A DNA stretch of 64,000 nt from Naegleria gruberi (taxonomy: Eukaryota), in assembly GCA_000004985.1 (NCBI GenBank), contig GG738916.1. The stretch is one strand, 5' to 3'. The notes below the pieces were generated by a model. The model saw nothing but the letters and a program-made list of their open reading frames with translations, was not told the origin of the DNA and did no database searches. This document shows positions 1-64,000 of the stretch, piece by piece; position 1 is the first letter of the stretch, and each line of letters starts with the position of its first letter. A program made the translations under genes and the position numbers.

Positions 1-1729
1 GGTGGTAAATCAGCTACTAATCTTGTTAAGGATTTTGTAAAGATTAAATTGTCTACTCTGGATGTGGATAAGGCTACTTGCCAATCGGAGGTATTAATTT
101 CTGAACTTGATGGCTTTGCTCCAAGATTTGGTCATTCATTGGTGTTGGAAAAATCAGAAAATGGTAAAAGACTTTACTCCATTGGTGGTTGTAATAATAA
201 GGTTGACCATTTGGATTGTATCTATATTGATTTAAATAACATCAAGAATGGTTGGGATGTAACTTATACTCATTCTCTTTCCCACACTTTCAAAAGCAAA
301 GATGTTGGACCCGTATTTCATGCAAATGTTCCATTCCAAGTGATCAATGAAGATGATAGTATTGCTATGAATTACTTTGTATTTGGTGGTACTTATCAAA
401 AGACTGAGGATTCTAAAATTCAAGAGACCAGCCAACAAACAGATAAGATTGAAAAGAAGCAGAAAAAGAAACAAGCTGGTGAGCCATCATTTAATATTGA
501 AGTATTTGATAATGTGATGAATGATGACATTTTCAGATTGGTTCTCTCATTCATGACAATTTCAGATTTGTGTAAATTAGAGTTGGTCTCTAAGAAATTG
601 AGAATTTGCAAGCTCACCTCAGAGGATCAATACTGGAAGGATTATTACTATCAAAGGATTAATTTATATTTGGAAGCAAGCAAAACTTATAACTATAATT
701 ACAACAAGATAACTAGAGCTTATGAAACTAATTATCAATATTCTGAGATCTATACTTCATACCTCAAATTTACTAGCAACTATAAGAGACGTTTGATTGA
801 AGTTATTGGAGAATGCATGTCAAAAGCTGACAGAGATCACCACAAGAGAACCAGTTATATTGAAGGTTTGTCACAATGTGGAAGTGACATCTACGTTCCT
901 AAAGAAGAAATTCTCAAGTACAAGTTGAAAAATGCTTCAACAAGTGCTTTTAAAATTGTTCAAGTTGGTGAGTTGTCATTTATTTGAGAAAATACTTGAA
1001 TACTAATTAATCAATTGAAATTTCAAATAATAAGGTGATGGAGCTGTGGGTAAAACATGTCTTTGGATATCTCTAACCACCAACGCCTTTCCACATGAAT
1101 ATGTGCCAACCGTTTTTGATAATTACAGTCAAAATTATGTCTGTGATGGAACAACTTTCAGTCTTGGATTGTGGGATACTGCAGGACCAGAAGGTAAGTA
1201 ATTTTAAAATTGTATTTTGGATTGACCATTCAAAAGATTATGATAGGTAAGTTTAAGAAGAGTTATTAATTTTATAAATTATGCAACTAATGAAATATTA
1301 ACGGATTTAAACATATACAGATTACGTCCACTTTCCTATCCCCAAACTGATTTATTCTTTTTGAGTTTCAGTTGTAGTTCAGAATCATCTATGGATAATG
1401 TCGTTTCAAAATGGATTCCTGAAATAAGACATCATTGCCCAACTACTGCAGTTGCACTTGTTTGTACCAAGATTGATTTTAGAGATGATCCAGTCCTTAG
1501 TAGAGAATTACTTGTCAAAAAACATAAGAAGATTCATAGTTTTGAACAGGGAGAATTACTTGCCAAAAAGATGGGATGTCTCACTTACTTGGAAACAAGT
1601 GCTCTTACAGGTGCTGGAATTAAGGATCTGAACGAAGTGATGGTCAGATCCATCTCTATGTGGAATGATCCTTCATTCAAGCAAATTGTGAAAAAGAATC
1701 GTGAAAAGAAGAATTGTAACATGCAATAA
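1..1729 (+). CDS. Multi-domain protein, 5'-truncated at the window edge. The N-terminal part has a Kelch-like repeat and an F-box-like motif; the ORF is open from nt 1 to 987. It is spliced in frame to a C-terminal Rho/Rac-family GTPase domain. Proposed exons: 1..967, 1035..1193, 1237..1246 (10-nt micro-exon), 1321..1729.
   Basis: The ORF is open from position 1 in frame. It contains GG-doublet/W Kelch-like motifs and an F-box-like stretch, [38 protein letters not shown]. It ends ...AFKIVQVG directly at a GTGAGT donor. The 67-nt intron (968..1034) ends AG, and the next exon reads (G)[32 protein letters not shown]...[10 protein letters not shown], a canonical Rho P-loop and switch I. The 10-nt micro-exon ATTATGATAG joins to exon 4 and restores [15 protein letters not shown]. 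The Rho insert region and a C-terminal CNMQ CaaX box are present. The GTPase domain itself has confidence about 0.9; the fusion to the upstream ORF is inferred from phase-perfect splicing. Confidence 0.6.
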
Positions 1730-12451: not shown

Positions 12452-14812
12452 ATGGGAGTAAATACGAAAAGCAATACACTGCTTACACTTGTTTCCAAGT
12501 GGGCAGTCTCCAATTCCATTATTATTCCTACCAACAACAATTCTGCATTGGAAAATCATCACAATGTGCAACAATCAACAAGCCTTTTAGATTTGCTTCC
12601 GATGAGAGTAATTGAAGAATTACTATCCTATCAATCGGCCTCTTCATTGGAACATTACTATTCTCTTTATTCTTCATCAAACTCTTCATCATCAAATGTA
12701 TTGATGAATAATAATTATAATATTAATTTGAATAATAGGAAATTAATGCAAAGGATTGTGGATCAATGTTTTGCAAGATTAATCGGAATTCAATTTGGAG
12801 AACCTCTAATTTACTCTAAATTGCAGACAAAACAAGGACAGTTACTGAAGGAAGGTGAGGAATTGGGATTATCATCACTCGAAGACTTGGATGATGAAGG
12901 TTATCATATAACAAGCTATTTTGAAAGTTATTTGCAAAAGTGTTTGGTGAATGTGTTATCGGAGAGACAAATTATTGAATTTGTCAAGATGAGTGATGAA
13001 GAGAATGAAAAAGTGAATGAAGATTGTGTTGTTTATAAGGAATTTCTCGATTTACCAATTGCAGATTCTGTTCTTAATCTTGCATTTTCGGAATTTGATG
13101 AGAACAATGAAATATTTCACTACTCAAAACGTATTTTCAATACGATTGGACAAGCTGTTTCTAAATTTGCTAAATATTCGAAAAAAATATCAGTTCCAAA
13201 GACTCTCTTGAAATATTTGGATGAAAGTTGTTCGATTGAGGAGTTTTTTAGCAATTTTACTCATGTTCATGAAATATCCTTCAGAGATATGAGAGATTCA
13301 GATGTTCAAAATATTATTCATATTCTCAAGCAGTGTAATAATGTAGAATCACTTTCATTTTATCATACATTTTTCACAGAGTCCAATCTTGCAATGGTTT
13401 TAGATATTTACTCAGACGCCATCTATGTGCCTCCAACAGATTATTCAGTCTATTTTAGTGATGATATCATGGAAAAGAAACCAATAGAACCAGCAAATGC
13501 CATGGTATATGATGAATTTGATTTTTATAGTGACATTCTGTCTCCTTCAGTCCCAATCGAAACAACATTGGAATCCAATAAGAAAAGAGAAAATAATAAC
13601 TTGTTTATAGAAGACGAGCTTGATTCCAAAAAGAGAAAAACAGATCCACCCAAACTCAAGAAACTCTCATTCAGATCGATATCTCTGTATCACTCATCCT
13701 GTAAATCAATTAGAGAAATATTGGAATATAACTCAACAGATATGCATGGAGTGGAGCTGAATTTTTCCTTCAATGAAATGAGTTCAGTAATGGCCAATGA
13801 GATGCTCTCAGGAGAATCCATAAGAAATATAACAAGATTAATACTCACAGAAAACAATGTAGAAAATGACTTTCTCATTCACCTCTCATCTCAAAAAGAC
13901 TTTTTCAAAAGTATCAAACATCTAGATTTGAGTAATAATAACTTTGTTGGAACTATTGGAGTGAATGCATTATTCACAGCATTGAATAACTATTCTTCAG
14001 GTATTTCTTTGGAACATTTGAATATTAGTCACAACAAACTCGGGGGAACAGACCTCCTCAATGACAATTATCGAATTGTACACCAAAATGAATTTAGCAA
14101 ATTGATAGAATACTTGAATGGGCCTAATTGCAACTTGAAAGAACTTTTGATCTCAAATTGTGATTTAACCCAAACAATGGTCGAATCACTCCTACTTGCT
14201 GTGGCCAATAATTCATCCCTAACCACATTGGACATTTCCAATACTCATTCCCTCCGTTTGTGTGGTTCTTCTCTGTCTCTAATGATCACCTCCAACAGCC
14301 CCCTGAAGAAAATGTCCATATCCACATGCTCCCTCAATGAAATTTCAGATTCTCTCTTTAATTCTCTCCTCTCCAATACCTCTCTTAGATATTTAGATTT
14401 GAGTGGAAATCGTTTCAAAGAATATGGTGGGAAGAACATTCTGACCTATCTCAGAACCAAAATTGATCAGCAACTCACAGAAAAACGAAACAAACATCAA
14501 CCATTCCATTTGAATACTCTCGATTTATCCTCCAATACTCTAACAGAACAATTTTGTCTCCAATTGACCCAACTCTTTGCCTCTCACTCCACGGATACAA
14601 CTGAACTATTGGACAAACACTATCTTCAAGCTAATGGATTACCTCTCATTGACATTCTCCAATTGGAAAACAACTTTTTCTCTCCTCATCTCACTCTGAG
14701 ATTAAAACAAGCAGCTCTCGACAGTTTCATTGTGAATCGAATTGTTCTCACCAATGAAGATGGATCCTCTGAGGTATTTTCTAATGTTTGTGATGGAACC
14801 ACTCTCACTTGA
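12452..14812 (+). CDS. Leucine-rich-repeat protein with an N-terminal F-box-like motif, 786 aa
   Basis: The F-box-like motif is LLDLLPMRVIEELLSY. Multiple LRRs are present (LDLSNNNFVGTIG, LNISHNKLGGTDL, LDLSSNTLTEQ, LDLSGNRF). There are poly-S/N tracts. It is a single ORF with an ATG start. Confidence 0.7.
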   Translation: MGVNTKSNTLLTLVSKWAVSNSIIIPTNNNSALENHHNVQQSTSLLDLLPMRVIEELLSYQSASSLEHYYSLYSSSNSSSSNVLMNNNYNINLNNRKLMQRIVDQCFARLIGIQFGEPLIYSKLQTKQGQLLKEGEELGLSSLEDLDDEGYHITSYFESYLQKCLVNVLSERQIIEFVKMSDEENEKVNEDCVVYKEFLDLPIADSVLNLAFSEFDENNEIFHYSKRIFNTIGQAVSKFAKYSKKISVPKTLLKYLDESCSIEEFFSNFTHVHEISFRDMRDSDVQNIIHILKQCNNVESLSFYHTFFTESNLAMVLDIYSDAIYVPPTDYSVYFSDDIMEKKPIEPANAMVYDEFDFYSDILSPSVPIETTLESNKKRENNNLFIEDELDSKKRKTDPPKLKKLSFRSISLYHSSCKSIREILEYNSTDMHGVELNFSFNEMSSVMANEMLSGESIRNITRLILTENNVENDFLIHLSSQKDFFKSIKHLDLSNNNFVGTIGVNALFTALNNYSSGISLEHLNISHNKLGGTDLLNDNYRIVHQNEFSKLIEYLNGPNCNLKELLISNCDLTQTMVESLLLAVANNSSLTTLDISNTHSLRLCGSSLSLMITSNSPLKKMSISTCSLNEISDSLFNSLLSNTSLRYLDLSGNRFKEYGGKNILTYLRTKIDQQLTEKRNKHQPFHLNTLDLSSNTLTEQFCLQLTQLFASHSTDTTELLDKHYLQANGLPLIDILQLENNFFSPHLTLRLKQAALDSFIVNRIVLTNEDGSSEVFSNVCDGTTLT

Positions 14813-36194: not shown

Positions 36195-38612
36195 ATGTCA
36201 CTTGTTATGTTCAAAGTTCAACCTGTCTGTCAAAATCAAAAAACATCAAAAAAAATGTTTTGCTTTCTCTTGCCCAATCGGAATAGTAGAAATAACAACA
36301 ATACCATCACTTCCATCTCTACCACTTCAAATGTAAATGACCACCTTTCGTCCGAATTATTGTCAATTATACTTTCGTATTTTTCATTCGAAGAGAAAAT
36401 TAGTGTGATGAGATTTGTTTCTAAAACTTGGTTTACTTTCTGTTGGATTAGTACTGATTCCATCAATATTGATGCTAAATGGAGTGAACAATATGTAAAA
36501 TATATTGTAAACAAAGTTATTCAAAAACAAACTCTTCCATATTTGGAAGAATTGACTGTTTCTTCAGAACATGCTCTTACAAATGATTTTCTAGTGGGTG
36601 ATTTCCTAACAAAATCAAGAAAATTGCAAAGACTCTTCTTGAAACAACCCATCAATTCATCTCAATTATTTAATGTCACCAATCATTTGAATAATTTGAC
36701 AAACATTTATTTGAATATTCATAATGTTAAGAATGAAACTCTCATTTCAACATTTAAAGATTTGGATTTTAATGATTTGAGACCAAAGACTGTAATATTG
36801 CCAAAACTCAAGTCGTTAACTTTACAAAATGCACATTTGGATGCTGAACATTCAGCATCGATCCTATTTCTCTTCCTTTTTAAGAATATTTTAGTGAACT
36901 TTTCTAATCATTTGCAATCCAGAACTGATCTTCCATCTACCATTGATTGTAATTTGTTGGAAGAAGTTGAATTAATCAAGTGTGATGGAATTGATGAGAT
37001 TTTTGAAAAATTGGAAAAGATTACAAAAGAATATTGTGAAAAGGAATTAAAGATTTATGGATCTACTGTTGAAAAATCATTCAGAAATTGCATTCCCCTC
37101 AATTCATTGACATTCAAGTTTTGTTCTGATGTTGGAGACAAGGCATGTGTTTCTAGTTCCAAATTATTTAAGAATCTCAACAAGTTGTGGTTTGATAAGA
37201 ATAAGAAACCAACAGAGTTGACCTTTGGTGTTGCTCCACAAAGTGGTTTTACAGGTATTTTGCACGAGAACAATGGATTGGTGTCTGTCTTGTATCAATT
37301 CAGAGATTCTTTGCGGAGTTTAAAGCTGTCAGAGTTTCTTTTCCATACATCAACCACTCCAGAGGATACACCTTACAATTTTACAAAAGTATTGAGTTTA
37401 TTGACGAATTTGAAAGATATTCAACTTGATTTAGGAAGCACCAATACATCAGTCTCGACTCAATCTGTATTTTTAGCTCAGAACATGTTTGAAATTTCGA
37501 ACAGTGTTGAAAGAATAGTTCTCAATGAATGTGGTGATATATTGACACAAGAATTTTGGGATGTCATGACTGGAAACAATGTTAAAGACGAGACTACCAT
37601 TTTTTATCCTAATCTACACACACTCACTGTTCACAGTGGCAAAATGTATAACATTACCTCTAGTTTAATTAGAGAAAATGCATTCCCTAAATTGGAAAAT
37701 GTTACCTTTGACTATTGTTGCAGAATTGAGAGTTTGTACAAGGATGCAAAAGAATCCTCAACTTCAACCTTCGAACAGAATGAAGAAGTCATCACCACCA
37801 ACAAGAAACAATTTAAAAACATTACATTCGATAGATGTATCAGATTGAAACAAGGAATGAATCAATTTATTTCCATGTGCAATCCAAAACTGATTGATAC
37901 GTTTGACTTTTTGCAAATGAAAGAATGCACACGTTATGATTGGTTAGGTAAATTGACCAGTGTGAAGCATGTCAACTTGACCAGCAATATTAATCTCAAG
38001 GATGATGATTTGAAGTATTTGGCAAATTGTGAACAACTTGTCTCACTTTCTCTAGCTCACAACAAGACTCTGAATGGTTCTGGACTCAAATACCTGGCCG
38101 ATTCTACAAGAATTTGTGAAACTTTGCAGTTCCTTAATGTAGATTGGTGTTCCAAATTTGAAGATCAAGCTCTAGAGCATATTTCAAAGTTTACCAATCT
38201 AAGACAATTACACATTTTACATGTAAAGATATTGTCTCGCTTTGATTTATTGAAGAGCTTAACCAAGTTGGAAACTCTGTTGCTTGTTCGTTGTTTCAAC
38301 TTGTCTGACGAGAGTATTATTCCAGTCATTGAAAATTGTAAAGATCTGAAGGTGTTATCACTTCATGGAGGGCATCACGGTTACAATGAAGCCATGTCCA
38401 ATAAGATTTTGAAAGCAATTTCTCAAAATTTACACAATATCAGACATTTGACTGTTAATTTTGCTCCAATCACCAACGATGGCGTTAAATTGCTTGCCAA
38501 ACTTCATTACTTGGAATATTTGGATGTAATGAGAAGTAAGGCATCCGATAAGATTTTAAAATACTTCCCAAACACTTCAGTTGTTCTTGATATCAAACAA
38601 ATATCCCAATAA
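36195..38612 (+). CDS. F-box/LRR-repeat protein, 805 aa
   Basis: F-box: LSSELLSIILSYFSFEEKISVMRFVSKTWFTFCW. C-terminal RNI-like LRRs: LKYLANCEQLVSLSLAHNKTLNGSGLKYLADS, LKVLSLHGG. Confidence 0.7.
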   Translation: MSLVMFKVQPVCQNQKTSKKMFCFLLPNRNSRNNNNTITSISTTSNVNDHLSSELLSIILSYFSFEEKISVMRFVSKTWFTFCWISTDSINIDAKWSEQYVKYIVNKVIQKQTLPYLEELTVSSEHALTNDFLVGDFLTKSRKLQRLFLKQPINSSQLFNVTNHLNNLTNIYLNIHNVKNETLISTFKDLDFNDLRPKTVILPKLKSLTLQNAHLDAEHSASILFLFLFKNILVNFSNHLQSRTDLPSTIDCNLLEEVELIKCDGIDEIFEKLEKITKEYCEKELKIYGSTVEKSFRNCIPLNSLTFKFCSDVGDKACVSSSKLFKNLNKLWFDKNKKPTELTFGVAPQSGFTGILHENNGLVSVLYQFRDSLRSLKLSEFLFHTSTTPEDTPYNFTKVLSLLTNLKDIQLDLGSTNTSVSTQSVFLAQNMFEISNSVERIVLNECGDILTQEFWDVMTGNNVKDETTIFYPNLHTLTVHSGKMYNITSSLIRENAFPKLENVTFDYCCRIESLYKDAKESSTSTFEQNEEVITTNKKQFKNITFDRCIRLKQGMNQFISMCNPKLIDTFDFLQMKECTRYDWLGKLTSVKHVNLTSNINLKDDDLKYLANCEQLVSLSLAHNKTLNGSGLKYLADSTRICETLQFLNVDWCSKFEDQALEHISKFTNLRQLHILHVKILSRFDLLKSLTKLETLLLVRCFNLSDESIIPVIENCKDLKVLSLHGGHHGYNEAMSNKILKAISQNLHNIRHLTVNFAPITNDGVKLLAKLHYLEYLDVMRSKASDKILKYFPNTSVVLDIKQISQ

Positions 38613-48360: not shown

Positions 48361-50787
48361 ATGCCCAATCATTCTAAATTATTTAGTAGTAAATTACATC
48401 ACAGCGAGGACGATGATGATATCTTCTCATCAGCTTCATCGGGAGGTTCATCAGCTTCCTCCGATCTGATCGATGTTCTGATCAAGAATACAACATCATC
48501 ACTGAAGGGGAAATCATCACTCGATTTTAAATCACTCCCAACAGGGATTATATTGAAAATTATTAGAGAGTATTATATTTTGGATTTGACTCAGTATTTT
48601 ACAATTTTAGTGAGAATGATTTATCACAAGTATAGAAATAACAAGACGAATGGTTTCTTTTTGATGAAATTGTTTTTTGGAAGGGTGAAGAAGGAAAGGT
48701 CTTTGGGATTTATGGATAAATATGACATGTCTTTGAATCCATTGTTTAATTCATTGACAAGTATTTCGAATAGTAGTAGTGTTAATACGGACAGTTGTTC
48801 AACAAGTGTTGGTTCTAACAAGTCGGAGGAAAATGAAAGAGTAGTCGTTTCCCTTTTCAAAAATGTATCATTATCAATAGAGCAAAGTTTTGTCGATCAA
48901 GAACAAGCAAAACACAAACATTACTATCAAATGATTGTTTGGTTGCATCAAATGTCAACATTGGAGTTTTTGTTTGGAGGAATACCACTGAATTATGTGG
49001 AATGGAATGTTCCTTATCCAGCCATTTTGGCCTCAGCTTTAAATAATCATGATTCCAATACACAATTGTTGGAAGAGATGAATTCCTCTCAGGTGGTAGT
49101 TGCTGGAGCTAAAAGTAATAGAAAATTTATTATTCGATCAGATGAACAATTTGAGGATTTGAATAGAAATCGTGTGAATAGCTTAATTCAAAATACACTT
49201 TATACGAGTAAGGAGGAAAAGACAGTGCTCAATTCTGATATATTATTCTACATTTACTTGAATGGAGTAAAGAGTGCCAAGTTGAAACTCTCTAATTTTG
49301 ACCTAGGTTTCGATCACATGACAACAAACAAGAGTAAGACTAATTTATTTTATTTGGAAAATATTGATTACCAAGGAAATAGTGATATGATGATGGAAGC
49401 ACTCAAATATTCAAAGAATATCAAGTTCTTAAACTTTATTGACTTTCCATTATCAGATCTGACCCACCTTTCGAATAACATGTTAAAATTATCACTGGAA
49501 ATTGCCAACATTTTCAATATCAAGGGAATTGAAAATATTGGAAAAATGGAAAAGCTTACCGAGCTGAAAATCATTATTGCAAAAAGTTTGCTGACAACCA
49601 CAATGAATAATTGCGATCCAATCATTGAAAAATTACAATTACAAAATCTTGACAAACTTAGGAAATTCCATCTCGAGAAAGAACCAACTATTAACTGTTC
49701 TGATTATAGAATTTTACTCAAATTGGTCAATTGCTTAACTAGCAAATTGAGAGAATTAACGTTTGCACGATTTCCTTATCCCAATATGGTTCATTCCCTT
49801 GTTAGAGAAAGATTTACAGAATTGAATTCTCTTATAATCAATGAGCCAACCATGTTGGAATTTTATGATGAACCAGTTCAATTTGATGGATTGGAACACT
49901 TTACACTCAAACTTTCCCCACAAATAGTGGCAGAAAACTCGAATTCGACTGTTAATTTACAATGCAAATTGACCAGTACCCAATTCGAGAATTTAAAGTT
50001 TAACTTCACAAATTCAAACTCTCTATGTTTCAATTTGGCTCCAAAGAATGCTTCAAATTACAAGAGTCATATTGTTGATAGTTTGGTCAATCAGGTTTTT
50101 GATAAGAACTCTCACATCTATGTCATCAGTTTTACAAATACTAGAATATCAAAACTCGAATCCATCTCTCACATGTTTCAGAAACCAAATTTTGTTCACG
50201 TACAAGTCCTCAATTTACTGCATTGTCTCAAACCAGAAATGTCAGTCACTCCAGAACTCGTGGATCAATTGGGAAAATCCTGTCCAAACCTAATTACACT
50301 CAAATGGTCTAATTTCAAGGAAAAGAAATGCTTTGAACATTTACAAAAACACTACAGACACCAACTACAGAATCTTTCTCTAAGACATTGTATTATTAGT
50401 AATTCTAAAGCTTTCGGATATCTATTCTCCATGAGTAAGCTCAAAAAGTTCTCACTCCAACTAGATCAAGCATTCCCTGCAAACTTCCATCAAACCATTT
50501 CCACACCACTTTTGACCTCCAAAACTACTTCAAATGGAAACGCTGATGAGCAATCAATTACTCAAGAAAATTCAACCACAATTCTATCTCTCTACAATGG
50601 ATGTTCTAATTTGGAATTATTTTCACTCGAAACTCCTGCATTTACAGATCCACAAGTATTGAGAGAATTATTTTCTAAAAAGAATAGAAATTTAACAAGA
50701 TTAACGATTCAAATCACTTCAAATAAGGATCAATTAGATACTCTACACGAAATTCTCAAAGAAGTTCAAAATGGAAAATTCAAATAA
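48361..50787 (+). CDS. Hypothetical LRR-like protein with a weak N-terminal F-box-like motif, 808 aa
   Basis: A long ORF. SLPTGIILKIIREYYILDL resembles an F-box. Repeated L-rich segments follow. No other recognisable domain. Confidence 0.45.
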   Translation: MPNHSKLFSSKLHHSEDDDDIFSSASSGGSSASSDLIDVLIKNTTSSLKGKSSLDFKSLPTGIILKIIREYYILDLTQYFTILVRMIYHKYRNNKTNGFFLMKLFFGRVKKERSLGFMDKYDMSLNPLFNSLTSISNSSSVNTDSCSTSVGSNKSEENERVVVSLFKNVSLSIEQSFVDQEQAKHKHYYQMIVWLHQMSTLEFLFGGIPLNYVEWNVPYPAILASALNNHDSNTQLLEEMNSSQVVVAGAKSNRKFIIRSDEQFEDLNRNRVNSLIQNTLYTSKEEKTVLNSDILFYIYLNGVKSAKLKLSNFDLGFDHMTTNKSKTNLFYLENIDYQGNSDMMMEALKYSKNIKFLNFIDFPLSDLTHLSNNMLKLSLEIANIFNIKGIENIGKMEKLTELKIIIAKSLLTTTMNNCDPIIEKLQLQNLDKLRKFHLEKEPTINCSDYRILLKLVNCLTSKLRELTFARFPYPNMVHSLVRERFTELNSLIINEPTMLEFYDEPVQFDGLEHFTLKLSPQIVAENSNSTVNLQCKLTSTQFENLKFNFTNSNSLCFNLAPKNASNYKSHIVDSLVNQVFDKNSHIYVISFTNTRISKLESISHMFQKPNFVHVQVLNLLHCLKPEMSVTPELVDQLGKSCPNLITLKWSNFKEKKCFEHLQKHYRHQLQNLSLRHCIISNSKAFGYLFSMSKLKKFSLQLDQAFPANFHQTISTPLLTSKTTSNGNADEQSITQENSTTILSLYNGCSNLELFSLETPAFTDPQVLRELFSKKNRNLTRLTIQITSNKDQLDTLHEILKEVQNGKFK

Positions 50788-53567: not shown

Positions 53568-55320
53568 ATGCTTTCTTTTTTACGCAAGGCTTTGACACAC
53601 AACAATAACAATAATAATAACAATAAGAATAACAATACTGATAACAATAATAATAATAATAGTGATAACAATCATTTTATTCCTAATGATATTTTAATAA
53701 TAATATTTCAATTTCTTAATCAACAAGATTATATAAAAATATCATTTGTTTGTAGATATTGGAGATTTGTTGTTCAACAACCATTCCGAAAGGAATTTAC
53801 AAATTTTATTTTAAACTCTTCATATTCAATAGTTTATTGTACATTTATTATTAATGCATTTGAGTTTTTTAAATTCTTTTCTTCCATAACATTATAACAC
53901 TGTACCTGAATCAACATTTAAAACTCTGCTTTCTTCAATGAAATTACAAAGTTTATTTATTGATTCTTGTGTTGTTAAAAATAATATACCATTCAATTCT
54001 GTAAAACAATCTAATATAACTGAATTAGGATTAAATTGTAAAATGAAAAAGAAAGATTTACGTGCTTTATTTATTGTAATTCCAAATTTGAAACATTTAA
54101 GTTTAGGAATGGTAGTAACCGAATGTTTAATTAACACAGAATCATTTCTGAGTACACATTGTCATAAATTAGAAACACTCCATTTACAATTATTACCTGA
54201 AAATCAAAAAAAAATTGTAAAATTATTACATGGAATATTTAATCCATCAACAACAATATCCAATCTCATTGATATTAGAATATTTGTAACAGATAATAAT
54301 CCAACAAGTAATAGAAAATTAAATAATTTTACATTTAATTTTAATTCATTTCCAAATTTAAAATATTTATTTCTTGATATTACCTATATTTATACATTAG
54401 AATCAATTAGTAATGTATTAAATTCAAATAATATTTCAAAATTACAAGAATTTGGATTTGGAACTATTAGAAAAGCTATTGAAAAATTACAATTTAATTC
54501 GAGTGAAAATTTACAAAATTTAAAAAAATTATTTTTAAATAGAACAGAAATGATGACAAATATTGATAATCTTCCTTCATTAGAATTATTATATATAGAT
54601 GAATATGCAAAAAAACATTATTCCGCTACAAAATATTCAAAACCATGGAATTTAGCATCTAATGTGAAAATGCCATCTCTAAAATATTTACATTTAAATC
54701 TTTTTAATGAAACTCATTTACCTGATCGATTAAATGTGGAACCATTTAAAAATATTAAATATTTTTATTTTGAATCTGAATATAATATTGATTTATCAGA
54801 ATTGAGTAAATTAAATTTAGAAATATTAATTCTTAAAATTTCTGAAGAATATAATAAGAATATACTTCATCACATTTCTAAAATATCAACATTGAGAGAT
54901 TTAACATTTAGTAATCCTATTAGTGAAATTGATTTGAAATTACTTTGTAAATTACCAAATTTAGAATATCTGAATATTAGATTGGAATTTTATAGTGAAA
55001 CATCTTTTACTTTTAATTCACTAACTACACTCTCAATTCATTCAAAAAATTTGAAAGGATTAAATTTCTTTCAAATATCAAATTTACCAAAATTTAAAAC
55101 TTTACTAATTCGTAATCCTTATGATAATAACTATACATGGTGGTTGCAACCATTATTTCCAAATTTACAAATAATTAAAGCAAGTACTGACAGTTTTGGA
55201 ATATTTTTAACATCTCAATATAATGATGATATGAATTTTGGTGAGTATGAAGTTTCACAAAGAGCAGCAAATCATTTCCAAAATGAAAACGTATGGCTCT
55301 TTCCAAAAAAATTTATTTAA
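53568..55320 (+). pseudogene. F-box/LRR gene, copy A of a tandem pair. It is disrupted by a small deletion that creates a stop after codon 109; the ORF resumes at 53938.
   Basis: About 95% identical to copy B (59373..61145). Near 53880, copy A reads ttataacactg where copy B reads ttatttttccataatactg. This gives a TAA in frame. The poly-N tract at the N-terminus differs in length between the copies. Confidence 0.55.
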
Positions 55321-56031
55321 TATTAAAGCTCTGTATCAGAGGTTTCTCCTTGGTCACAGTTGATTTTTTAGAAGGATCTCCTTCAGCCAATATCTTTGGT
55401 TTCAAATGGTGAATTCAAGCAAGCCAATGCTGAGAAGGCCAAAGTTGACAATGATTATGTTTGTAAACATTTCAAATCCTATTTTTCAAAAAATTCAAAT
55501 AAAAAGTTGGTACATCATCATAGTTGTTATTTATCATCATTATAAAAGCCTCTTGGATGGTTCAAGAGATGCTGAATTCAAATGTTATAGAGATTGAACA
55601 GAATATTGTTGTACATTATATTTATTGTACCCAAGAAGGAACTTTTGGAATAAAGGACAGTTCCTTCAAGTTTACCAATTCAAATGCCTTTCATTTGGAA
55701 TAAGCCAAGCTCCCAGGAACTCACCAAGATTATGAAAAAACTGGTAACCAAGTGGAGACAACAAGGTATTATTTTGTTCCTAAAATTCAGAAAGAAAAGG
55801 GTGTCTTTACTCCCTGACTCAAACTGAAGCAATTTAGACTTCAAACGTAATATTTCCATCATTTGCAAGCCTAAGAACTGAAAAAGGATAAGGAATTGCT
55901 TTAGTGTTGAGAAATGAAGGAGAATTTTGTGAAGAATTAAGACAGGCCAAAATTAAATCCTTACAAGTCTGATTTCTAACTTGGAAAATTTATTTATTTA
56001 TTGATTGGCCCATGGTTTTACCTCATTTCCA

Positions 56032-58504
56032 TTATTTTCTGTTTACTCTCAACCAATAATCGATAATAACTTTCAAGAAATTATTGCATGGTATATTTTC
56101 TTGACAAGATAATTGGATTTTTTGTAAATAATCAAGAGTTAAATTATTTGAGCAAAATATCTTGAAATACTCAACTAGCTCTCTACAATCATTATTATTT
56201 TGTGAAACTGAAGCTAAATTTAGTAATATAATAAATTCAGTATCATTAATGGAATATAATTTTTCAACAATCAAGATACAGACATGTTTAACAATCCATG
56301 TAATATCCAATTGTTGTGCAATGATTAAAATACCAACCAAATCATTCAATTTAAGGTAATTGAACTCATATCCATAACATAATTTACATATGATTTGTAA
56401 TATTGTATTAATTTTAGCTGAATTATTGAACAAATCAATAATCCAATGATCTGATACCATCATTTCAATGAATTCATACAAGTCAACCACATTATTTTCA
56501 TTATTTTTAAATAGAATATTTAAAACTGAACTATGAACGGATAGAATTGATTTATGTAATTGCAATAATTCATTTTTATCCTTATTAATAATTACATGAA
56601 TATCACTATTACTTTCATCATTATATAATAATTTTAATGATTCAGTTACATTTTTGGCAATATTTTCAAGATTATCAATTTTATAATTAATTTGTTTAAA
56701 TGGTTGTTTAACATTATTAATTTTATCTTGAATAATTTCGAATAATGGATCTGATTTCAATAAAGTTGCATTTTCTTTAATAAATGCAAGACACTTATTT
56801 GCCAACAATAGCAAAATACTATTTTTAGCTTGTTTTAAAATATTTAAAGAAAGATAATTATTAACTATTCGTAAAATCCTCATAATGTTATCTACATTCA
56901 TTCTATTTGAAATGTCATTAAATAACAATAATTTAATTTCATGCTTGATATCATTAATATCATTTAATATAAATAGACAAGTTACTAAATTTAATTCTAA
57001 TTCTCCAAATGAAATGAAATTAATAAATTTATCATAATTACTAAATAAATCATCTATATTTAAACAATTTAAATCAATAATTGCGTTTTTAATTAAATAA
57101 TATAAAACTTTTTGGTCATTCTCATTTAAATGTTCAATTATATCATTTTTAATTAAATTATAAAAATCATTTGAAATATTTTTTAATAAATTTAAATCTA
57201 AATAAAAATTAGAATTAATTTCATAATTGAACTTAAAATTATCAGTTACCATAATATCATTAATCTTGAGACTATTCTCATTATCTGTTTCATGAATAAA
57301 AATAGTAAAATTTTTACCACAACAAATTTGAATTTCATCACCTTCCTTAATAGTAAATGGTAATTCAATTAATTTTAGTTCATTGGCTGATTTATTAGCA
57401 TATCCTAATTCGCCAAATTCATTAGATCCAAATGAATAGAACTTTTGGTCTACTGTTTGCAAAACACTGTGGAAGGTACCACTTTCCATATTAATAATAT
57501 TATCCATATTTGCTTGTTTAGAATTATAGTCAATATATTTGCATTCATTATTATATAACGATAAAATTTGATATTCATTCAATATTAATTGATCATAATT
57601 TTTCTCAAATTTAAACTCATTATAATTATTATGTAATTTAATTACTTTTTTAGGATTGTAATAATCTGCCAAGCCATAATCAATTAAAGTATAATCTAGA
57701 ATTTACAATAGAAGAATCATTAAAAATAATGAAACTAGTTCTTCCATTACATTTAATATCCTTAATATCTTCAATATTCTTATTAACTAATTTGGTAACA
57801 TTCATAAAATTATTTAAGGTAAAATAATCTTCAACATGTAATTTACCATTTACAATACTTTCAATTACAAATGGTTGGAATGATTGTGAATATTCATTCA
57901 TTCCACAAACATACAATTCATTTTCAAATGTTGTGAAAAATGTCAAATGAAATGTTACAAATATTTTGTTTACTTTTAACTTTTCTAAATTTGTATTTTG
58001 TAATAAATTAACGGCTACATCATTTGATTTTTTAGCAATGATAGCCAATTGTCCATGTTCATTATTACCAATACCAAATATGGAATTTAATTTAGATAAA
58101 AATACAACATGTTCTTTACCAATCGCAAAATCAATAATTTTGTCACTAGTATTTAAATTATTAAATTTAATCAATGTAGGAATATTAGAAATATTATTAA
58201 TAAATGAACAATTTCCCATTTTGTAAACATATCCCTTACGCGTAAGAAATATGCACAATTGATCTTGACTTTTAAATTTAATAATCTTATCATTAATTAA
58301 ATAATTTTGTAAATAATCAATTTTATCAAAACATGTATCATTTAATTTTGTAACAGTAATAATATCACTTTGTTTCTTCCAGAATCCATCTCCGCATCCG
58401 TAAACAAATTGTGATTTAGAAGAATTAATACCGAAAGCAGTGTTATTAGGTTCTGTTTCGTCGTCCACTACTTGATCAACATGGTGAATGGTGAATTGAT
58501 TCAT
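56032..58504 (-). CDS. RCC1-like repeat plus BTB/POZ domain protein. It is split into two ORFs (58504..57680 and 57672..56032) by a stop or frameshift. Coding is extremely AT-rich.
   Basis: RCC1-type blades: YGCGDGFW, FGIGNNEHGQLA, FGSNEFGELGY. A C-terminal BTB-like block: DLYEFIEMMVSDHWIIDLFNNSAKINTILQIICKLCYGYEF...LIIAQQLDI. The two ORFs are 7 nt apart and in different frames. Confidence 0.55.
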
Positions 58505-59372
58505 TTTTTTTTATAGAGTGGTCTCTCGGTTGTTATTGATACAAGAGACATTAATAAACTTGTACACCTTTTATTTTGTTATAGATTGTTACAACAAATA
58601 TTGTGCTTACTCAGCATTGCATTCATTGGTTTTGTCTAGCTAGATCGGCGGAAATGAAATCTCATTCGTGTGATTGATGTGAGAGATGTTACGCGCCAAA
58701 ATTTCTACACCAAAAAATAAGCAAAGCCACTTTTTCGAACTCTTATTTGAAAATCCATTAAGGAAATTAAACTCTCAGTACTTTCAAGAAATACCTCTAC
58801 TCATCATCATTGGTATTTAATTCAATCAACATAAATCAGCATCAATTTGGAATATTTCAATTAGAGTAGCTGGGATACATCTCACCAAAAGTAATAAGAG
58901 CAATATTGTGTGATGGTGTTTCTTCTTGGAATGAAGAAAGTTGCCAACCTCGGAAATATCAAACATTATCATTAAGCTGTAATTCAACATCACATTATAT
59001 TTATTTTTATATTAATAGTAATACTTGTTCATTAGGAATTTCTTCAACTAATTAATATATTTTCATCATGAATTCCAAAAACATTGTATGATTATTAGGG
59101 ATGTCTAATCTAATATCACCATCAAGAGAGTTGGATTATTTGTATTCATCGAGTTGTGGAATTTTACTTCATCATACCTTATCATCAGCAAGCTCACTTC
59201 AGATCATTAAGGTAAATATCTTAATGGTCATCATCAACCAGTTGCAGATTAAAACTGTGATTTAATGTCTCAATTAAGTTGATTGCTATGTTTGGAAAAT
59301 ACACGAACGATTCAATATTTCAATTTTTAAAAAGGAAGGAAGATTCTTCATGACTTTCAAAAAATTAAAAAA

Positions 59373-61145
59373 ATGCTTTCTTTTTTGCACAAGGCTTTGA
59401 CACACAACAATAACAAGAATAACAATAATAATACTAATAATACTAATAACAATACTGATAACAATAATAATAGTGATAACAATAATTTTATTCCCAATGA
59501 TATTTTAATAATAATATTTCAATTTCTCAATCAACAAGATTATATAAAAATATCATTTGTTTGTAGATATTGGAGATTTGTTGTTCAACAACCATTCCGA
59601 AAGGAATTTACAAATTATATTTTAAACTCTTCATATTCAATAGTTTATTGTACATTTATTATTAATGCATTTGAGTTTTTTAAATTCTTTTCTTCCATAA
59701 CATTATTTTTCCATAATACTGTACCTGAATCAACATTTAAAGCTCTACTTTCTTCAATGAAATTACAAAGTTTATTTATTGATTCTTGTGTTGCTAAAAA
59801 TAATATACCATTCAATTCTATAAAACAATCTAATATAACTGAATTAGGATTAAATTGTAAAATGAAAAAGAAAGATTTACGTGCTTTATTTATTGCACTT
59901 CCAAATTTGAAACATTTAAGTTTAGGAACGGTAGTAACAGAATGTTTAATTAGCACGGAATTATTTCTGAGTACACATTGTCATAAATTAGAAACACTCC
60001 ATTTACAATTATTACCTGAAAATCAAAAAAAAATTGTAAAATTATTAAATGGAATATTTAATCCATCAACAACAACAATATCCAATCTCATTGATATTAG
60101 AATATTTGTAAAAGAATATTATACAACAAGTAATAGAAAATTACATAATTTTACATTTAATTTTAATTCATTTCCAAATTTAAAATATTTATTTCTTGAT
60201 ATTACCTATATTTATACATTAGAATCAATTAGCAATGTATTAAATTCAAATAATATTTCAAAATTACAAGAATTTGGATTTGGAACTATTAGAAAAGCTA
60301 TTGAAAAATTACAATTTAATTCGAGTGAAAATTTACAAAATTTAAAAAAATTATTTTTAAATAGAACAGAAATGATGACAAATATTGATAATCTTCCTTC
60401 ATTAGAATTATTATATATAGATGAATATGCAAAAAAACATTATTCCGCTACAAAATATTCAAAACCATGGAATTTAGCATCTAATGTGAAAATGCCATCT
60501 CTAAAATATTTACATTTAAATCTTTTTAATGAAACTCATTTACCTGATCGATTAAATGTGGAATCATTTAAAAATATTAAATATTTTTATTTTGAATCAG
60601 AATATAATATTGATTTATCAGAATTGAGTAAATTAAATTTAGAAATATTAATTCTTAACATTTCTTTAAAATATAATAAGAATATATTTCATCACATTTC
60701 TAAAATATCAACATTGAGAGATTTAACATTTAGTAATCCTATTAGTGAAATTGATTTGAAATTACTTTGTAAATTACCAAATTTAGAATATCTTTATATT
60801 ACATTGGAATTTTATAGTGAAACATTTTTTACTTTTAATTCACTAACTACACTTTCAATTCATTCAGATAATTTGAAAGAATTAAATTTCTTTCAAATAT
60901 CAAATTTACCAAAATTGAAAACTTTACTAATTCGTAATCCTTTTGATAATAACCATACATGGTGGTTGCAACAATTGTTTCCAAATTTACAAATAATTAA
61001 TGCAAGTACTAACAGTATAGGAATATTTTCAACATCATCTCAATATAATGATGGTATGAATTTTGGTGAGTATGAAGTTTCACAAAGAGCAGCAAATTAT
61101 TTACAAAATGAATATGTATGGCTCTTTCCAAAAAAATTTATTTAA
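59373..61145 (+). CDS. F-box/LRR protein, intact copy B of the tandem pair, 590 aa
   Basis: F-box: IPNDILIIIFQFLNQQDYIKISFVCRYWRFVVQQPF. L-rich repeats follow (LKHLSLG, LETLHLQ, LKYLFLD, LEYLYITLEF). The N-terminus is poly-N. Confidence 0.7.
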   Translation: MLSFLHKALTHNNNKNNNNNTNNTNNNTDNNNNSDNNNFIPNDILIIIFQFLNQQDYIKISFVCRYWRFVVQQPFRKEFTNYILNSSYSIVYCTFIINAFEFFKFFSSITLFFHNTVPESTFKALLSSMKLQSLFIDSCVAKNNIPFNSIKQSNITELGLNCKMKKKDLRALFIALPNLKHLSLGTVVTECLISTELFLSTHCHKLETLHLQLLPENQKKIVKLLNGIFNPSTTTISNLIDIRIFVKEYYTTSNRKLHNFTFNFNSFPNLKYLFLDITYIYTLESISNVLNSNNISKLQEFGFGTIRKAIEKLQFNSSENLQNLKKLFLNRTEMMTNIDNLPSLELLYIDEYAKKHYSATKYSKPWNLASNVKMPSLKYLHLNLFNETHLPDRLNVESFKNIKYFYFESEYNIDLSELSKLNLEILILNISLKYNKNIFHHISKISTLRDLTFSNPISEIDLKLLCKLPNLEYLYITLEFYSETFFTFNSLTTLSIHSDNLKELNFFQISNLPKLKTLLIRNPFDNNHTWWLQQLFPNLQIINASTNSIGIFSTSSQYNDGMNFGEYEVSQRAANYLQNEYVWLFPKKFI

Positions 61146-61282
61146 CATTAAAGCTCTGTATCAGAAGTTTCTCCTTGGTCAAATCTGAATAGTGAATTCA
61201 AGTAAGGCCAAAGTTGACAATGTTCAATGAATAATGTTTGTAAACATTTCAAATCCTATTTTCAAAAAATTCAAATAAAAAA

Positions 61283-62829
61283 ATGTCAAGATTAACTTTT
61301 CCGTTACTTCTTGCTACATTGATAATCGCTTTCGTTTTGGTGTCATCAGCATCATTATCGGATCGGGTTAATGCCTTGACTCCACTCATAAAAACATCAA
61401 AATTATTCTCCATCAAACAACAGAATAATAACAAGCAATTATTTATTACTGCTACAATTTATCCTAATTTTAAAATTGTTCATGGAGTGAAGGATTTAAA
61501 ATTTGGTTTGGCTACTATTGAATATAATGATCAGTTACATGCACAAGGATTTGATACATTGGTTTTAGAGACGAGACAATCTACAAGTTTGGTGGAAGAC
61601 TTTGCTATTGCTCAGGGGGCTGGATATTTGGAAGGCTATTTGACAATGCAGAGAATTTACAATCATTTTGTGAATATTAATAGTGTATCGTGGTGGAATG
61701 CTAAGGAGAATAGAACTTTGGGAATGTCAAGTAATATTCGTCAATTTTTCAAAGATCAAAANACATGGATTTTACAACAAGTGAGCCAACACATGAATGG
61801 AACAACAGAAGAGGATTTATATTGGCNNNNNNNNNNNNNNNNNNNNNNNNNNNNNNNNNNNNNNNNNNNNNNNNNNACTGATATTATTTCAGTCATACCG
61901 TTGGGTGGGTATTTAGTGCCTTGACAAGAATGATGAAGACATACACTCTCAATTTTGCAAATCCACTCACAAAGTCTCGCACAGTGACATTTTCGAGTTA
62001 TCCTGGATCATTAGGCAGTAATGATGACTATTATCAAACTGATGGTGGTCTTGTTGTTATCGAGACAACCATTGGCATTTTGAATAATACTCTCTACGAT
62101 AATACTCATCCTCAATCATTGTTGAGTTGGTTTAGAGTTGTCTTGGCCAATAGAATGGCTACAAGTGGCAGAGAATGGTTTGAAGTTTTTAGTATTAATA
62201 ATGGAGGAACCTATAATAATGAGTGGATGATTCTCGATGTGAAAAAGTTTATTCCTGGTCAAGCTCAATTGACAAAGGATTTATTCTGGGTAATTGAACA
62301 AATACCTGGAACAGTGGTGGGATCAGATCAAACAAATCTTCTCTCCACTCGCGGATACTTTGCATCTTATAATGTTCCTTTCTATCCTTCCATTTATGAA
62401 AAAACTGGATATGCAGAATATGTGAAGAAATTTCCAGAGACTTATCATTATATGAGTTATGATAAGTGTGCCAGATCTGAAATATTCAGAAGAGATCAAC
62501 ATTTAGTCAAAGATCTGCCATCCATGCAACGAATTATGCAATATGATAATTATCATGATGAATTTTCATTCGGAAATCCTGACTGGGTAATCTCAGCAAG
62601 AGACGATTTAGCTCCAAATGTTCCAAATGGACAAAAGAGTTGTGGAGGTGGATATGACTGTAAAATATCATCTATTTCTAAATGGAATTTTGTATTTTTC
62701 AGAAGTGGACCAGCTCACCAATTTACACCTGTTTTCAAGTTTGAGAATCAATGTGGACCTCAATACTCACATGTTGGATTGCCTTTGGAGTGGAACTTCC
62801 CTTGGATTCAATTGGATAGCAGAGTTTAA
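61283..62829 (+). CDS. Phospholipase B-like (PLBD/LAMA family) protein, interrupted by a 50-N assembly gap
   Basis: Signal-like N-terminus: FPLLLATLIIAFVLVSSAS. Conserved PLB-like blocks: AQGAGYLEGYLT, NNEWMILD, SYNVPFYPSIYEKTGY. The two supplied ORFs, 61283..61924 and 61921..62829, are one gene read across the gap. Confidence 0.75.
61827..61876. other. Assembly gap: a run of 50 N, plus an isolated N at 61762
   Basis: A literal N run in the sequence. Confidence 0.99.
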
Positions 62830-63082: not shown

Positions 63083-63322
63083 ATGCAACCTCAACAAAGC
63101 ACCACTGGCAGTACAATGCAAAATATTAAGGAGAAAGTCAAACATCCATTCACTCATGACACTGACACCAACATTACCTATCCAACCAGAGAACAAAAGA
63201 AATTAGCAGAATCTGGCACTACAGTTCCTCAATCCACCGTTGGAAGTGGTGGAATGTTAAATCAACCAACAACCACTCAATCCAATATTGGTAGAGAAGA
63301 ATACTTGGAAAAGAAATTGTAA
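63083..63322 (+). CDS. Possible small hydrophilic protein, 79 aa
   Basis: ATG in an A-rich context. T/Q/S-rich. It sits between two annotated genes. Short, so uncertain. Confidence 0.25.
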   Translation: MQPQQSTTGSTMQNIKEKVKHPFTHDTDTNITYPTREQKKLAESGTTVPQSTVGSGGMLNQPTTTQSNIGREEYLEKKL

Positions 63323-63382: not shown

Positions 63383-64000
63383 ATGGCGCAAAATATCTTT
63401 GAAGTTTTGCCCAACGATTTGATCGGAGAAGTTCTCTCTCATATCAGCCATGTTGAATTACTTGTTACCTTCTCTCAAGTTTGTAAATATTGGCAGAGAA
63501 TTTGTTATGAATTAATTTGGAATTATTATGAAGAATCATTTACACATATTACGAATAATCCGAAACAAGTATTTGTTGATTTGGATCAATTTTTACATTC
63601 AAAAGAAGGAAAGAAATTTATTAGATATTTACTACGTAAACAGGTTTATGAATTTGCTTGTAAATTGGCTCAGAGTTCAACACTTTCCGATAAATCATGT
63701 AATGTGAAAGAAAAGTGGGTCGATGTGGAATTGAGTATATTGAAGGGATGTTTTAAAAGATTCTCTGATTTGGCAGAGCAACCAACGATTCCAATTCTAC
63801 AACCAAAAGTTTACAAAGATCCACCACCAACATCAGGATTGTTCAGTAGTGCTTTATCATTTATTGGATCAATGTTTTCAAAGAATTCATCAAGTAGTTC
63901 CAAAGCTACACCAATTAGTGTTGAGCCAAAACCAGAATATGATTTTCTAACAAAGGTACTTTTGGATGGCGACTATTCAAGTGGAAAGACTTCATTGCTT
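63383..64000 (+). CDS. F-box protein, 3'-truncated at the window edge. The last visible residues start a P-loop GTPase-like motif.
   Basis: ATG at 63383. F-box: LPNDLIGEVLSHISHVELLVTFSQVCKYWQRICYELIW. It is open in frame to the window end, 206 codons with no stop. The final residues KVLLDGDYSSGKTSLL fit the GxxxxGK[ST] G1 motif of small GTPases. Confidence 0.55.
   Translation, partial: MAQNIFEVLPNDLIGEVLSHISHVELLVTFSQVCKYWQRICYELIWNYYEESFTHITNNPKQVFVDLDQFLHSKEGKKFIRYLLRKQVYEFACKLAQSSTLSDKSCNVKEKWVDVELSILKGCFKRFSDLAEQPTIPILQPKVYKDPPPTSGLFSSALSFIGSMFSKNSSSSSKATPISVEPKPEYDFLTKVLLDGDYSSGKTSLL

Follow-up and report, generated by a model that had tools for sequence, protein, structure and literature searches.

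The 64,000-nucleotide stretch of Naegleria gruberi DNA analysed here (contig GG738916.1 of assembly GCA_000004985.1; hereafter the window) ends inside a gene that joins an F-box to a small GTPase domain. Positions 63383 to 64000 are exon 1 of an intact two-exon gene, NAEGRDRAFT_74672 in a corrected form, whose product of 360 residues has an F-box at its N-terminus, followed by a helical extension specific to the family, a disordered linker rich in Ser and, last, a divergent Rab-like G domain. We regard this identity and architecture as practically certain. On the plus strand an ATG at 63383 opens 206 codons that run without a stop up to the end of the window, and the F-box-GTPase fusion that the initial annotation had read from the raw sequence indeed lies in one continuous open reading frame (ORF) from F-box to P-loop. 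Its parts are placed as follows.

63383..64000, plus strand: exon 1 of the F-box-Rab-like GTPase gene (NAEGRDRAFT_74672, corrected model); the window end cuts the exon.
63401..63523, plus strand: F-box, residues 7-47, EVLPNDLIGEVLSHISHVELLVTFSQVCKYWQRICYELIWN; matched by Pfam PF12937 and PF00646 above their gathering scores.
63530..63754, plus strand: helical extension, residues ~50-124; conserved in paralogues and modelled by AF2 as helical with a pLDDT of ~90.
63779..63937, plus strand: Ser/Pro-rich low-complexity linker, residues ~133-185; pLDDT below ~60, length variable among paralogues.
63953..64000, plus strand: start of the Rab-like G domain, with strand beta-1 (KVLLDG) and the P-loop or G1 motif (GDYSSGKT); residue 191 is the first of the Pfam Ras match.

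The F-box with which the ORF had been said to open is recognised over residues 7-47 by two Pfam profiles, PF12937 (F-box-like) with 30.8 bits against a cutoff of 24.3 and PF00646 (F-box) with 30.5 bits against 20.5, and the result is unchanged when the full-length protein of 360 residues is searched. The helical extension that follows contains the conserved blocks LLRKxV..A and W..ELSILKGYF, and the Ser/Pro-rich linker contains a short conserved helix, FxxxLSFIGSxFS. The last 16 residues in the window, KVLLDGDYSSGKTSLL, comprise a hydrophobic beta-1 strand and then a P-loop of the form GxxxxGK[ST]; the P-loop GDYSSGKT occupies residues 196-203 (nucleotides 63968-63991), and this start of the G domain aligns with LLLIGDSGVGKT of Rab8A.

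The sequence beyond position 64000 was taken from the GenBank protein XP_002670359.1 (NAEGRDRAFT_74672, 358 residues) and from L003, a near-identical metagenome contig of 3.9 kb that spans the whole locus and whose nucleotides 35-652 equal the window ORF (618/618 nucleotides identical). The GenBank protein runs on past GKTSLL as NCAMNETPVDPSNNHHITTIGMDFAIKNFHFGDTTKVKLQLWDQCGPERFRQIT...ILITTKKDKKDE...HLDITNT...YCALLKYLLS. In L003, exon 1 extends 116 nucleotides beyond the window and exon 2 encodes QLWDQCGPERF... up to a TAA stop; extrapolated to window coordinates, exon 1 reaches ~64117, a 39-nucleotide intron occupies ~64118-64156 and the stop of exon 2 lies at ~64504. The intron is canonical (GTAAGT...AG, GTAAGTAACATTTCAAACTGACTTTGCAAACTCTAACAG) and holds an in-frame TGA, and its removal restores the beta-3/G3 junction KVKL/QLWDQCGPERF, which aligns with RIKLQIWDTAG of Rab8. 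The protein assembled from the window and L003 has 360 residues. The downstream sequence completes the Ras/Rab-like G domain that had been proposed from its first residues at the window edge: switch I (TIGMDF), DxxG (DQCG) and NKxD (TKKD) are all present, residues 191-337 of the full protein are recognised by the Pfam profiles Ras (1.9e-18) and Roc (4.2e-18), and what follows the window edge is no stop but an intron of the normal, short GT..AG kind.

The three metagenome contigs used in this work, L001, L002 and L003 (ENA ERZ929261 / run ERR1078381, PRJEB11402), are near-identical to the N. gruberi NEG-M nuclear genome, a second haplotype included, and evidently a very close strain of N. gruberi was present in the sample. 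In the tail of the protein, nucleotides 809-1156 of L003 and the GenBank protein differ at 7/154 residues, between positions 261 and 347 (L261V, P262S, T279P, H280Y, N294K, L325F and N347Y). The cause could be either that haplotypes were assembled into a chimera or that the C-terminal half of the G domain evolves fast.

The deposited model of the gene has another N-terminus. In XP_002670359.1 an upstream ORF of 79 residues is spliced to 'YLLRKQ...' in the middle of the F-box ORF, and the F-box is skipped.

63083..63322, plus strand: upstream 79-residue ORF; ends in TAA and is a separate gene in the metagenome gene calls.

This upstream ORF has no match to a Pfam family. Were the GenBank/JGI model right, the gene would start at the 79-residue ORF, the F-box stretch would be intronic and there would be no F-box-GTPase fusion; a GT (63318) and an AG (~63623) exist that would permit the splice, and the model is the deposited one, yet several observations make it extremely improbable. 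The stretch taken for an intron contains an in-frame F-box, significant in Pfam, that runs without a break into the downstream exon, and it would have to span ~300 nucleotides, whereas the other introns seen in the window genes and in L003 measure 39-74 nucleotides. The N-terminus with the F-box is conserved in the paralogues P0006 (61% identity, 99% coverage) and P0007 (55%) and in P0008 of N. fowleri (37%), the identities being those of the full-length proteins. A comparison of two haplotypes, the window and L002, points the same way: the upstream non-coding DNA differs at 17 positions in 170 nucleotides (~10%), and the 60-nucleotide spacer between the 79-residue ORF and the ATG carries an 18-nucleotide deletion in L002, whereas the F-box ORF shows 1 difference in 608 nucleotides (at 63908, in the linker) and none in the part that GenBank treats as intron. 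The 79-residue ORF itself shows no differences. Finally, the model had already been corrected to the F-box form by Herman et al. (2021; BMC Biol 19:142, PMC8296547), whose Table S8 (Additional file 10) lists XP_002670359.1* as 'Rab' with the domain 'F-box'; the corrected sequence of 360 residues given there is letter-for-letter the protein that we assembled independently. By these sequence comparisons the GenBank/RefSeq model appears to be wrong, and the start at the F-box is favoured. Because the public model lacks the F-box, automated domain censuses miss the fusion. The same model also accounts for an artefact of our own searches, in which a word-index homology search with the 206-residue window fragment returned no match: the 358-residue GenBank protein sits in a 90% cluster that is represented by the 79-residue ORF. 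A full-length query then found the family.

The G domain is most similar to exocytic Rabs. When the full protein was compared with all PDB sequences, the best matches were Rab8A (4.8e-19), Sec4, Rab27A, Rab1 and Rab43, and the G2 (ITTIGMDF) and G3 (WDQCG) motifs, which lie beyond the window, align with STIGIDF and WDTAG of Rab8A. The RabF motifs that mark Rab proteins read IGVDF, KLQIW, RFRSIT, YYRGA and LVYDIT, and the protein has motifs of this type in IGMDF, KLQLW, RFRQIT, FYRHA and LLVDPS. The G4 motif is TKKD (ITTKKD). There are, however, marked departures. Pro253, in WDQCGPE, aligns with Gln67 of Rab8, so that the catalytic Gln (Gln61 of Ras) is replaced, and the same Gln-to-Pro change in WDxxGPE recurs in N. 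gruberi paralogues, in N. fowleri and in metagenome relatives. The equivalent of Ras Gly12 is a Tyr (GDYSSGKT), and Tyr or Trp stands there in many members of the family. Since the catalytic Gln is Pro and the Gly12 equivalent a bulky Tyr or Trp, hydrolysis is probably very slow and the protein probably a poor GTPase, as judged by analogy with mutants of the Ras superfamily. The SAK of G5 is replaced by a family-conserved (D/E)ITNT, here ITNT. The C-terminus (...WYCALLKYLLS) has no terminal CC, CxC or CaaX, and the close paralogues likewise lack a C-terminal Cys motif. Without a Cys motif for geranylgeranylation the protein is Rab-like rather than a bona fide Rab, and from the missing prenylation Cys we expect that it has no lipid anchor and is probably soluble or recruited through protein contacts.

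Structural models were obtained by running AF2 on the 61%-identical paralogue P0006 and on the window fragment, and structural matches were sought with Foldseek. The P0006 model (pLDDT 76, pTM 0.77) shows helices over residues 9-132, a disordered segment over 143-193 and the G domain over 199-370, which matches Rab8, Rab11, Rab35 and Rab1 at a TM of ~0.8. The model of the window fragment has a pLDDT of ~90 over residues 10-125, and its top PDB matches are the F-boxes of Skp1 complexes: FBXL17 (root mean square deviation 0.7 Å over 35 residues, 34% identity), Fbs2, FBG3 and TIR1. The F-box of the fragment superposes on Skp1-bound F-boxes at 0.7-1.8 Å; the Foldseek E-values for these matches exceed 0.1 because the match is short (~35-40 residues). 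In the model, then, the F-box has the three-helix fold seen bound to Skp1. The helical extension beyond it gave no significant structural match in Foldseek against the PDB and no similarity to any known domain.

The family was delimited with a HMMER profile of 227 N-terminal positions (F-box, extension, linker and P-loop), which was searched against 1.84 billion representative proteins and gave 42 matches at E <= 0.001, 17 of them at E <= 1e-10. Pfam detects an F-box in 32 of the 42 and Ras in 16. Twenty of the 42 were looked up by exact sequence, and 12 of these could be named: they come from N. gruberi, N. fowleri and N. lovaniensis, with one from Willaertia magna (KAL9643028.1), the rest being metagenome contigs. 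Full-length F-box + Ras paralogues are found in N. gruberi and N. fowleri, and paralogues and orthologues retain the F-box, the helical extension, WDxxGPE and TKxD, none having a C-terminal Cys. Among the named matches the family is restricted to one lineage, Naegleria and Willaertia.

A fast birth-and-death family may also hold members that are decaying or without function, with a reading frame that is open but does nothing specific, and the present gene could be one of them. Disrupted members occur in these Rab-like clades (PMC8296547), some relatives are without G3 or G4, and the tail differs between the NEG-M model and the L003 allele as described above. Both exons are nevertheless open in NEG-M and in the second haplotype, the coding sequence is far less diverged between haplotypes than its flanks (the 1 difference in 608 nucleotides against 17 in 170), the nucleotide-binding motifs are intact except for SAK, and the family has been kept across Naegleria species and Willaertia; we consider decay decidedly improbable.

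Since the gene, its corrected model and its family were published in 2021, the system is already known and is not one of a new kind. In the supplement of Herman et al. (PMC8296547), divergent Rab-like subgroups share a conserved N-terminal extension, with an F-box in at least some, and the F-box is the most frequent extra domain on Ras-superfamily GTPases of Naegleria (Rab, Rho and Ran as well as G-alpha). The same authors describe members of these Rab-like clades that are disrupted or pseudogenised, saw no close relatives beyond Naegleria and propose a 'GTPase-dependent ubiquitination'. Our analysis adds the recurrence of the G3 Gln-to-Pro change and of an aromatic Gly12 equivalent across the subgroup, the haplotype support for the corrected model, structural models that indicate the helical extension and the disordered linker, and the N-terminal profile match in Willaertia magna. 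Judged by its sequence, KAL9643028.1 would slightly widen the 'Naegleria-only' range. We found no functional work on this gene or family in the literature, and nothing useful on Skp1 or cullins of Naegleria.

How the protein may work is suggested by its parts. The F-box would dock on Skp1 and so place the protein at the substrate-receptor position of a Skp1-Cul1-Rbx1 (SCF) ubiquitin ligase, where the G domain would replace the usual WD40 or leucine-rich repeat (LRR) module for substrate recognition; proteins that bind the switch regions of the G domain would then be the targets of ubiquitination. The G domain would be held mostly in its GTP form and would serve as a binding module that is largely constitutive, or regulated by exchange, and not as a fast switch, with control exerted by expression, exchange or turnover and not by a fast GTPase cycle. 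For this receptor mechanism as such the sequence makes a serious case, one that nonetheless falls somewhat short of probable. Taken as a whole, the F-box-Rab-like gene with the SCF-receptor working is the best explanation we can offer, and we lean towards it with guarded confidence. A more general form of the idea, in which such proteins are nucleotide-gated or GTP-locked SCF receptors whose small-GTPase effector surface selects the targets and which have expanded by birth and death in Naegleria and Willaertia, is put forward tentatively; behind the expansion there was perhaps an arms race in which intracellular bacteria or giant viruses manipulate the Rabs of their host.

Several points weigh against the receptor mechanism. 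Skp1 binding, nucleotide binding and the substrates are all predicted from sequence, and with SAK changed to ITNT the binding of guanine in particular is a prediction. The slow hydrolysis expected of the Gln-to-Pro change derives from Ras and Rab mutants and not from this protein. Some members of the family have lost G3 or G4, and these losses, together with the pseudogenised members reported by Herman et al., suggest that cycling, and even nucleotide binding, may be dispensable for the G domain.

Two other ways of using an F-box have to be considered. F-box proteins are commonly unstable, and the F-box could be a handle for self-destruction, the protein being a Rab-like signalling or trafficking GTPase whose level is set by SCF autoubiquitination and which delivers no other proteins. 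Self-turnover of this kind has been offered for TbFRP, a protein that is rapidly processed and kept at a tightly controlled level (PMC3593210), and the F-box and GTPase parts are arranged here as they are there. Sequence does not separate autoubiquitination from the receptor mechanism and the two are not exclusive, but a protein that lacks a lipid anchor and probably does not hydrolyse GTP would make a poor conventional membrane-cycling Rab, and we think a role in self-turnover unlikely. The second possibility is a Skp1 complex outside SCF that acts in membrane traffic. In yeast the F-box protein Rcy1 forms a Skp1 complex that lacks Cul1 and cooperates with the Rabs Ypt31/32, and in the Naegleria protein an F-box partner and a Rab-like module would be united in one chain. 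Such a role would suit a G domain whose nearest matches are Rabs of exocytosis and recycling (Rab8, Sec4, Rab11 and Rab35) and an F-box that is modelled with a fold of the Skp1-binding type; the protein has, however, no prenylation motif or other membrane anchor, its helical extension is without similarity to Rcy1 or to a known domain, and the comparison is purely one of analogy. We judge it improbable. The SCF substrate receptor remains the working that we favour for the F-box-Rab-like protein.

A second F-box-GTPase gene, here called gene 1, lies at the opposite end of the window.

1..1729, plus strand: gene 1, Kelch-F-box-Rho/Rac-like GTPase, its 5' part cut by the window start; exons 1-967, 1035-1193, 1237-1246 and 1321-1729.

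Its GT..AG introns measure 67, 43 and 74 nucleotides, and the 43- and 74-nucleotide introns enclose a micro-exon of 10 nucleotides (1237-1246). The product consists of Kelch-like repeats, an F-box-like stretch (~517-606) and a Rho/Rac-type GTPase with TVFDNY, TKID and a CaaX box, CNMQ. Pfam recognises Ras at 8.2e-39, while the F-box scores 17.7 bits, below the cutoff of 20.5. Those relatives of gene 1 that come from Naegleria bear the name 'F-box domain-containing protein', and for one of them (P0066) precomputed Pfam matches to F-box exist. Full-length relatives with Kelch and Ras are found in N. fowleri, N. lovaniensis and Willaertia magna. The G3 motif is WDTAGPE (~1170-1193), with Pro in place of the catalytic Gln.

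The two genes are alike in having an F-box-like motif before a small GTPase and a G3 that reads 'GPE', and in belonging to the same lineage. Gene 1 differs in its Kelch propeller, its Rho/Rac-type G domain and its CaaX box, and the two have no linker in common. They align at 26% identity (E 6e-6) in the G domain only, and the similarity of the F-boxes (E 0.084) is not significant. The similarity is that of G domains in general, and an origin of the two fusions as tandem paralogues is ruled out. The initial annotation had held that two such fusions in one window suggest a family rather than an accident. A family does exist, with paralogues and relatives of the F-box-Rab-like gene in Naegleria and Willaertia, but the two fusions of the window belong to different families. 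The window thus holds two distinct F-box-GTPase families, which agrees with the finding of Herman et al. that F-boxes are joined to several GTPase families (PMC8296547). The combination 'F-box + Rho' is covered by these authors; we looked for the sequence of gene 1 in their Table S8 and did not locate it. The Gln-to-Pro change, being common to two unrelated F-box-GTPase families, may be convergent.

The window as a whole has a G+C content of ~33%, long ORFs and short GT..AG introns, and it also codes for an aspartate carbamoyltransferase and a helicase of 2295 residues. Several of its proteins, these two included, match N. gruberi NEG-M proteins exactly, and on that ground a giant-virus or dictyostelid origin, considered because of the base composition, was rejected. 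It is unusually rich in ORFs of the F-box and/or LRR type (12452-14812, 36195-38612, 48361-50787, 53938-55320 and 59373-61145). In Pfam, 59373-61145 has an F-box above threshold, LRR matches of varying strength fall in 12452-14812, 36195-38612 and 53938-55320, and 48361-50787 gave no match. Over ~8 kb (54000-62000) the G+C content falls from ~33% to 21-27%, for which a recent duplication, a mobile insertion or a foreign origin are possible. This stretch contains two near-duplicate F-box/LRR genes, 53938-55320 and 59373-61145. The minus strand between them bears two neighbouring ORFs, 56032-57672 and 57680-58504, that carry RCC1 repeats and a BTB domain and may be parts of a single gene interrupted by a stop or an intron. 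A run of N at ~61760-61810, an assembly gap, interrupts a phospholipase B-like gene at 61283-62829 (Pfam Phospholip_B 7e-103, for the 3' part); contig L001 covers the region of the gap but aligns poorly there.

Among known systems, the F-box-Rab-like subgroups of Naegleria described by Herman et al. (2021; Additional files 4 and 10) include this very gene, and there is no difference in kind. TbFRP, a FYVE-F-box-Ras-like GTPase of Euglenozoa (Abbasi and Field 2013, PMC3593210), resembles it in that a Rab-related G domain is preceded by an F-box in one polypeptide, and in its discoban host. TbFRP differs in having an N-terminal FYVE domain that binds phosphatidylinositol 3-phosphate, whereas the Naegleria protein has no FYVE match in Pfam, and no N. 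gruberi orthologue of TbFRP was found in that study (PMC3593210). Homology between the two fusions is unsupported by the profile search: no named euglenozoan is among the 20 N-terminal profile matches that were looked up, and none of these is named from outside Naegleria and Willaertia.

The exocytic Rabs (Rab8, Sec4 and Rab1) are the best matches in both sequence and structure, and IGMDF, KLQLW and RFRQIT are largely kept. The protein departs from them in its N-terminal extension of 190 residues, in the change of Gln to Pro and of SAK to ITNT, and in the lack of a Cys for geranylgeranylation.

The nearest functional analogy is RhoBTB, a Cul3 adaptor in which a Rho-like GTPase is joined to BTB domains. 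Both proteins couple an atypical small-GTPase domain, probably one without GTP hydrolysis, to a cullin-adaptor module. RhoBTB, however, uses BTB for Cul3 where the Naegleria protein has an F-box for Skp1-Cul1, its GTPase domain is N-terminal and of the Rho type, and beyond the G fold the two show no relationship in sequence. Naegleria, too, has RhoBTB (PMC8296547). The F-box-Rab-like fusion is one of the features that make the GTPase repertoire of Naegleria unusual, and it suggests a direct link from small-GTPase signalling to cullin-RING ubiquitination, in which it would be the Skp1/Cul1 counterpart of RhoBTB and Cul3.

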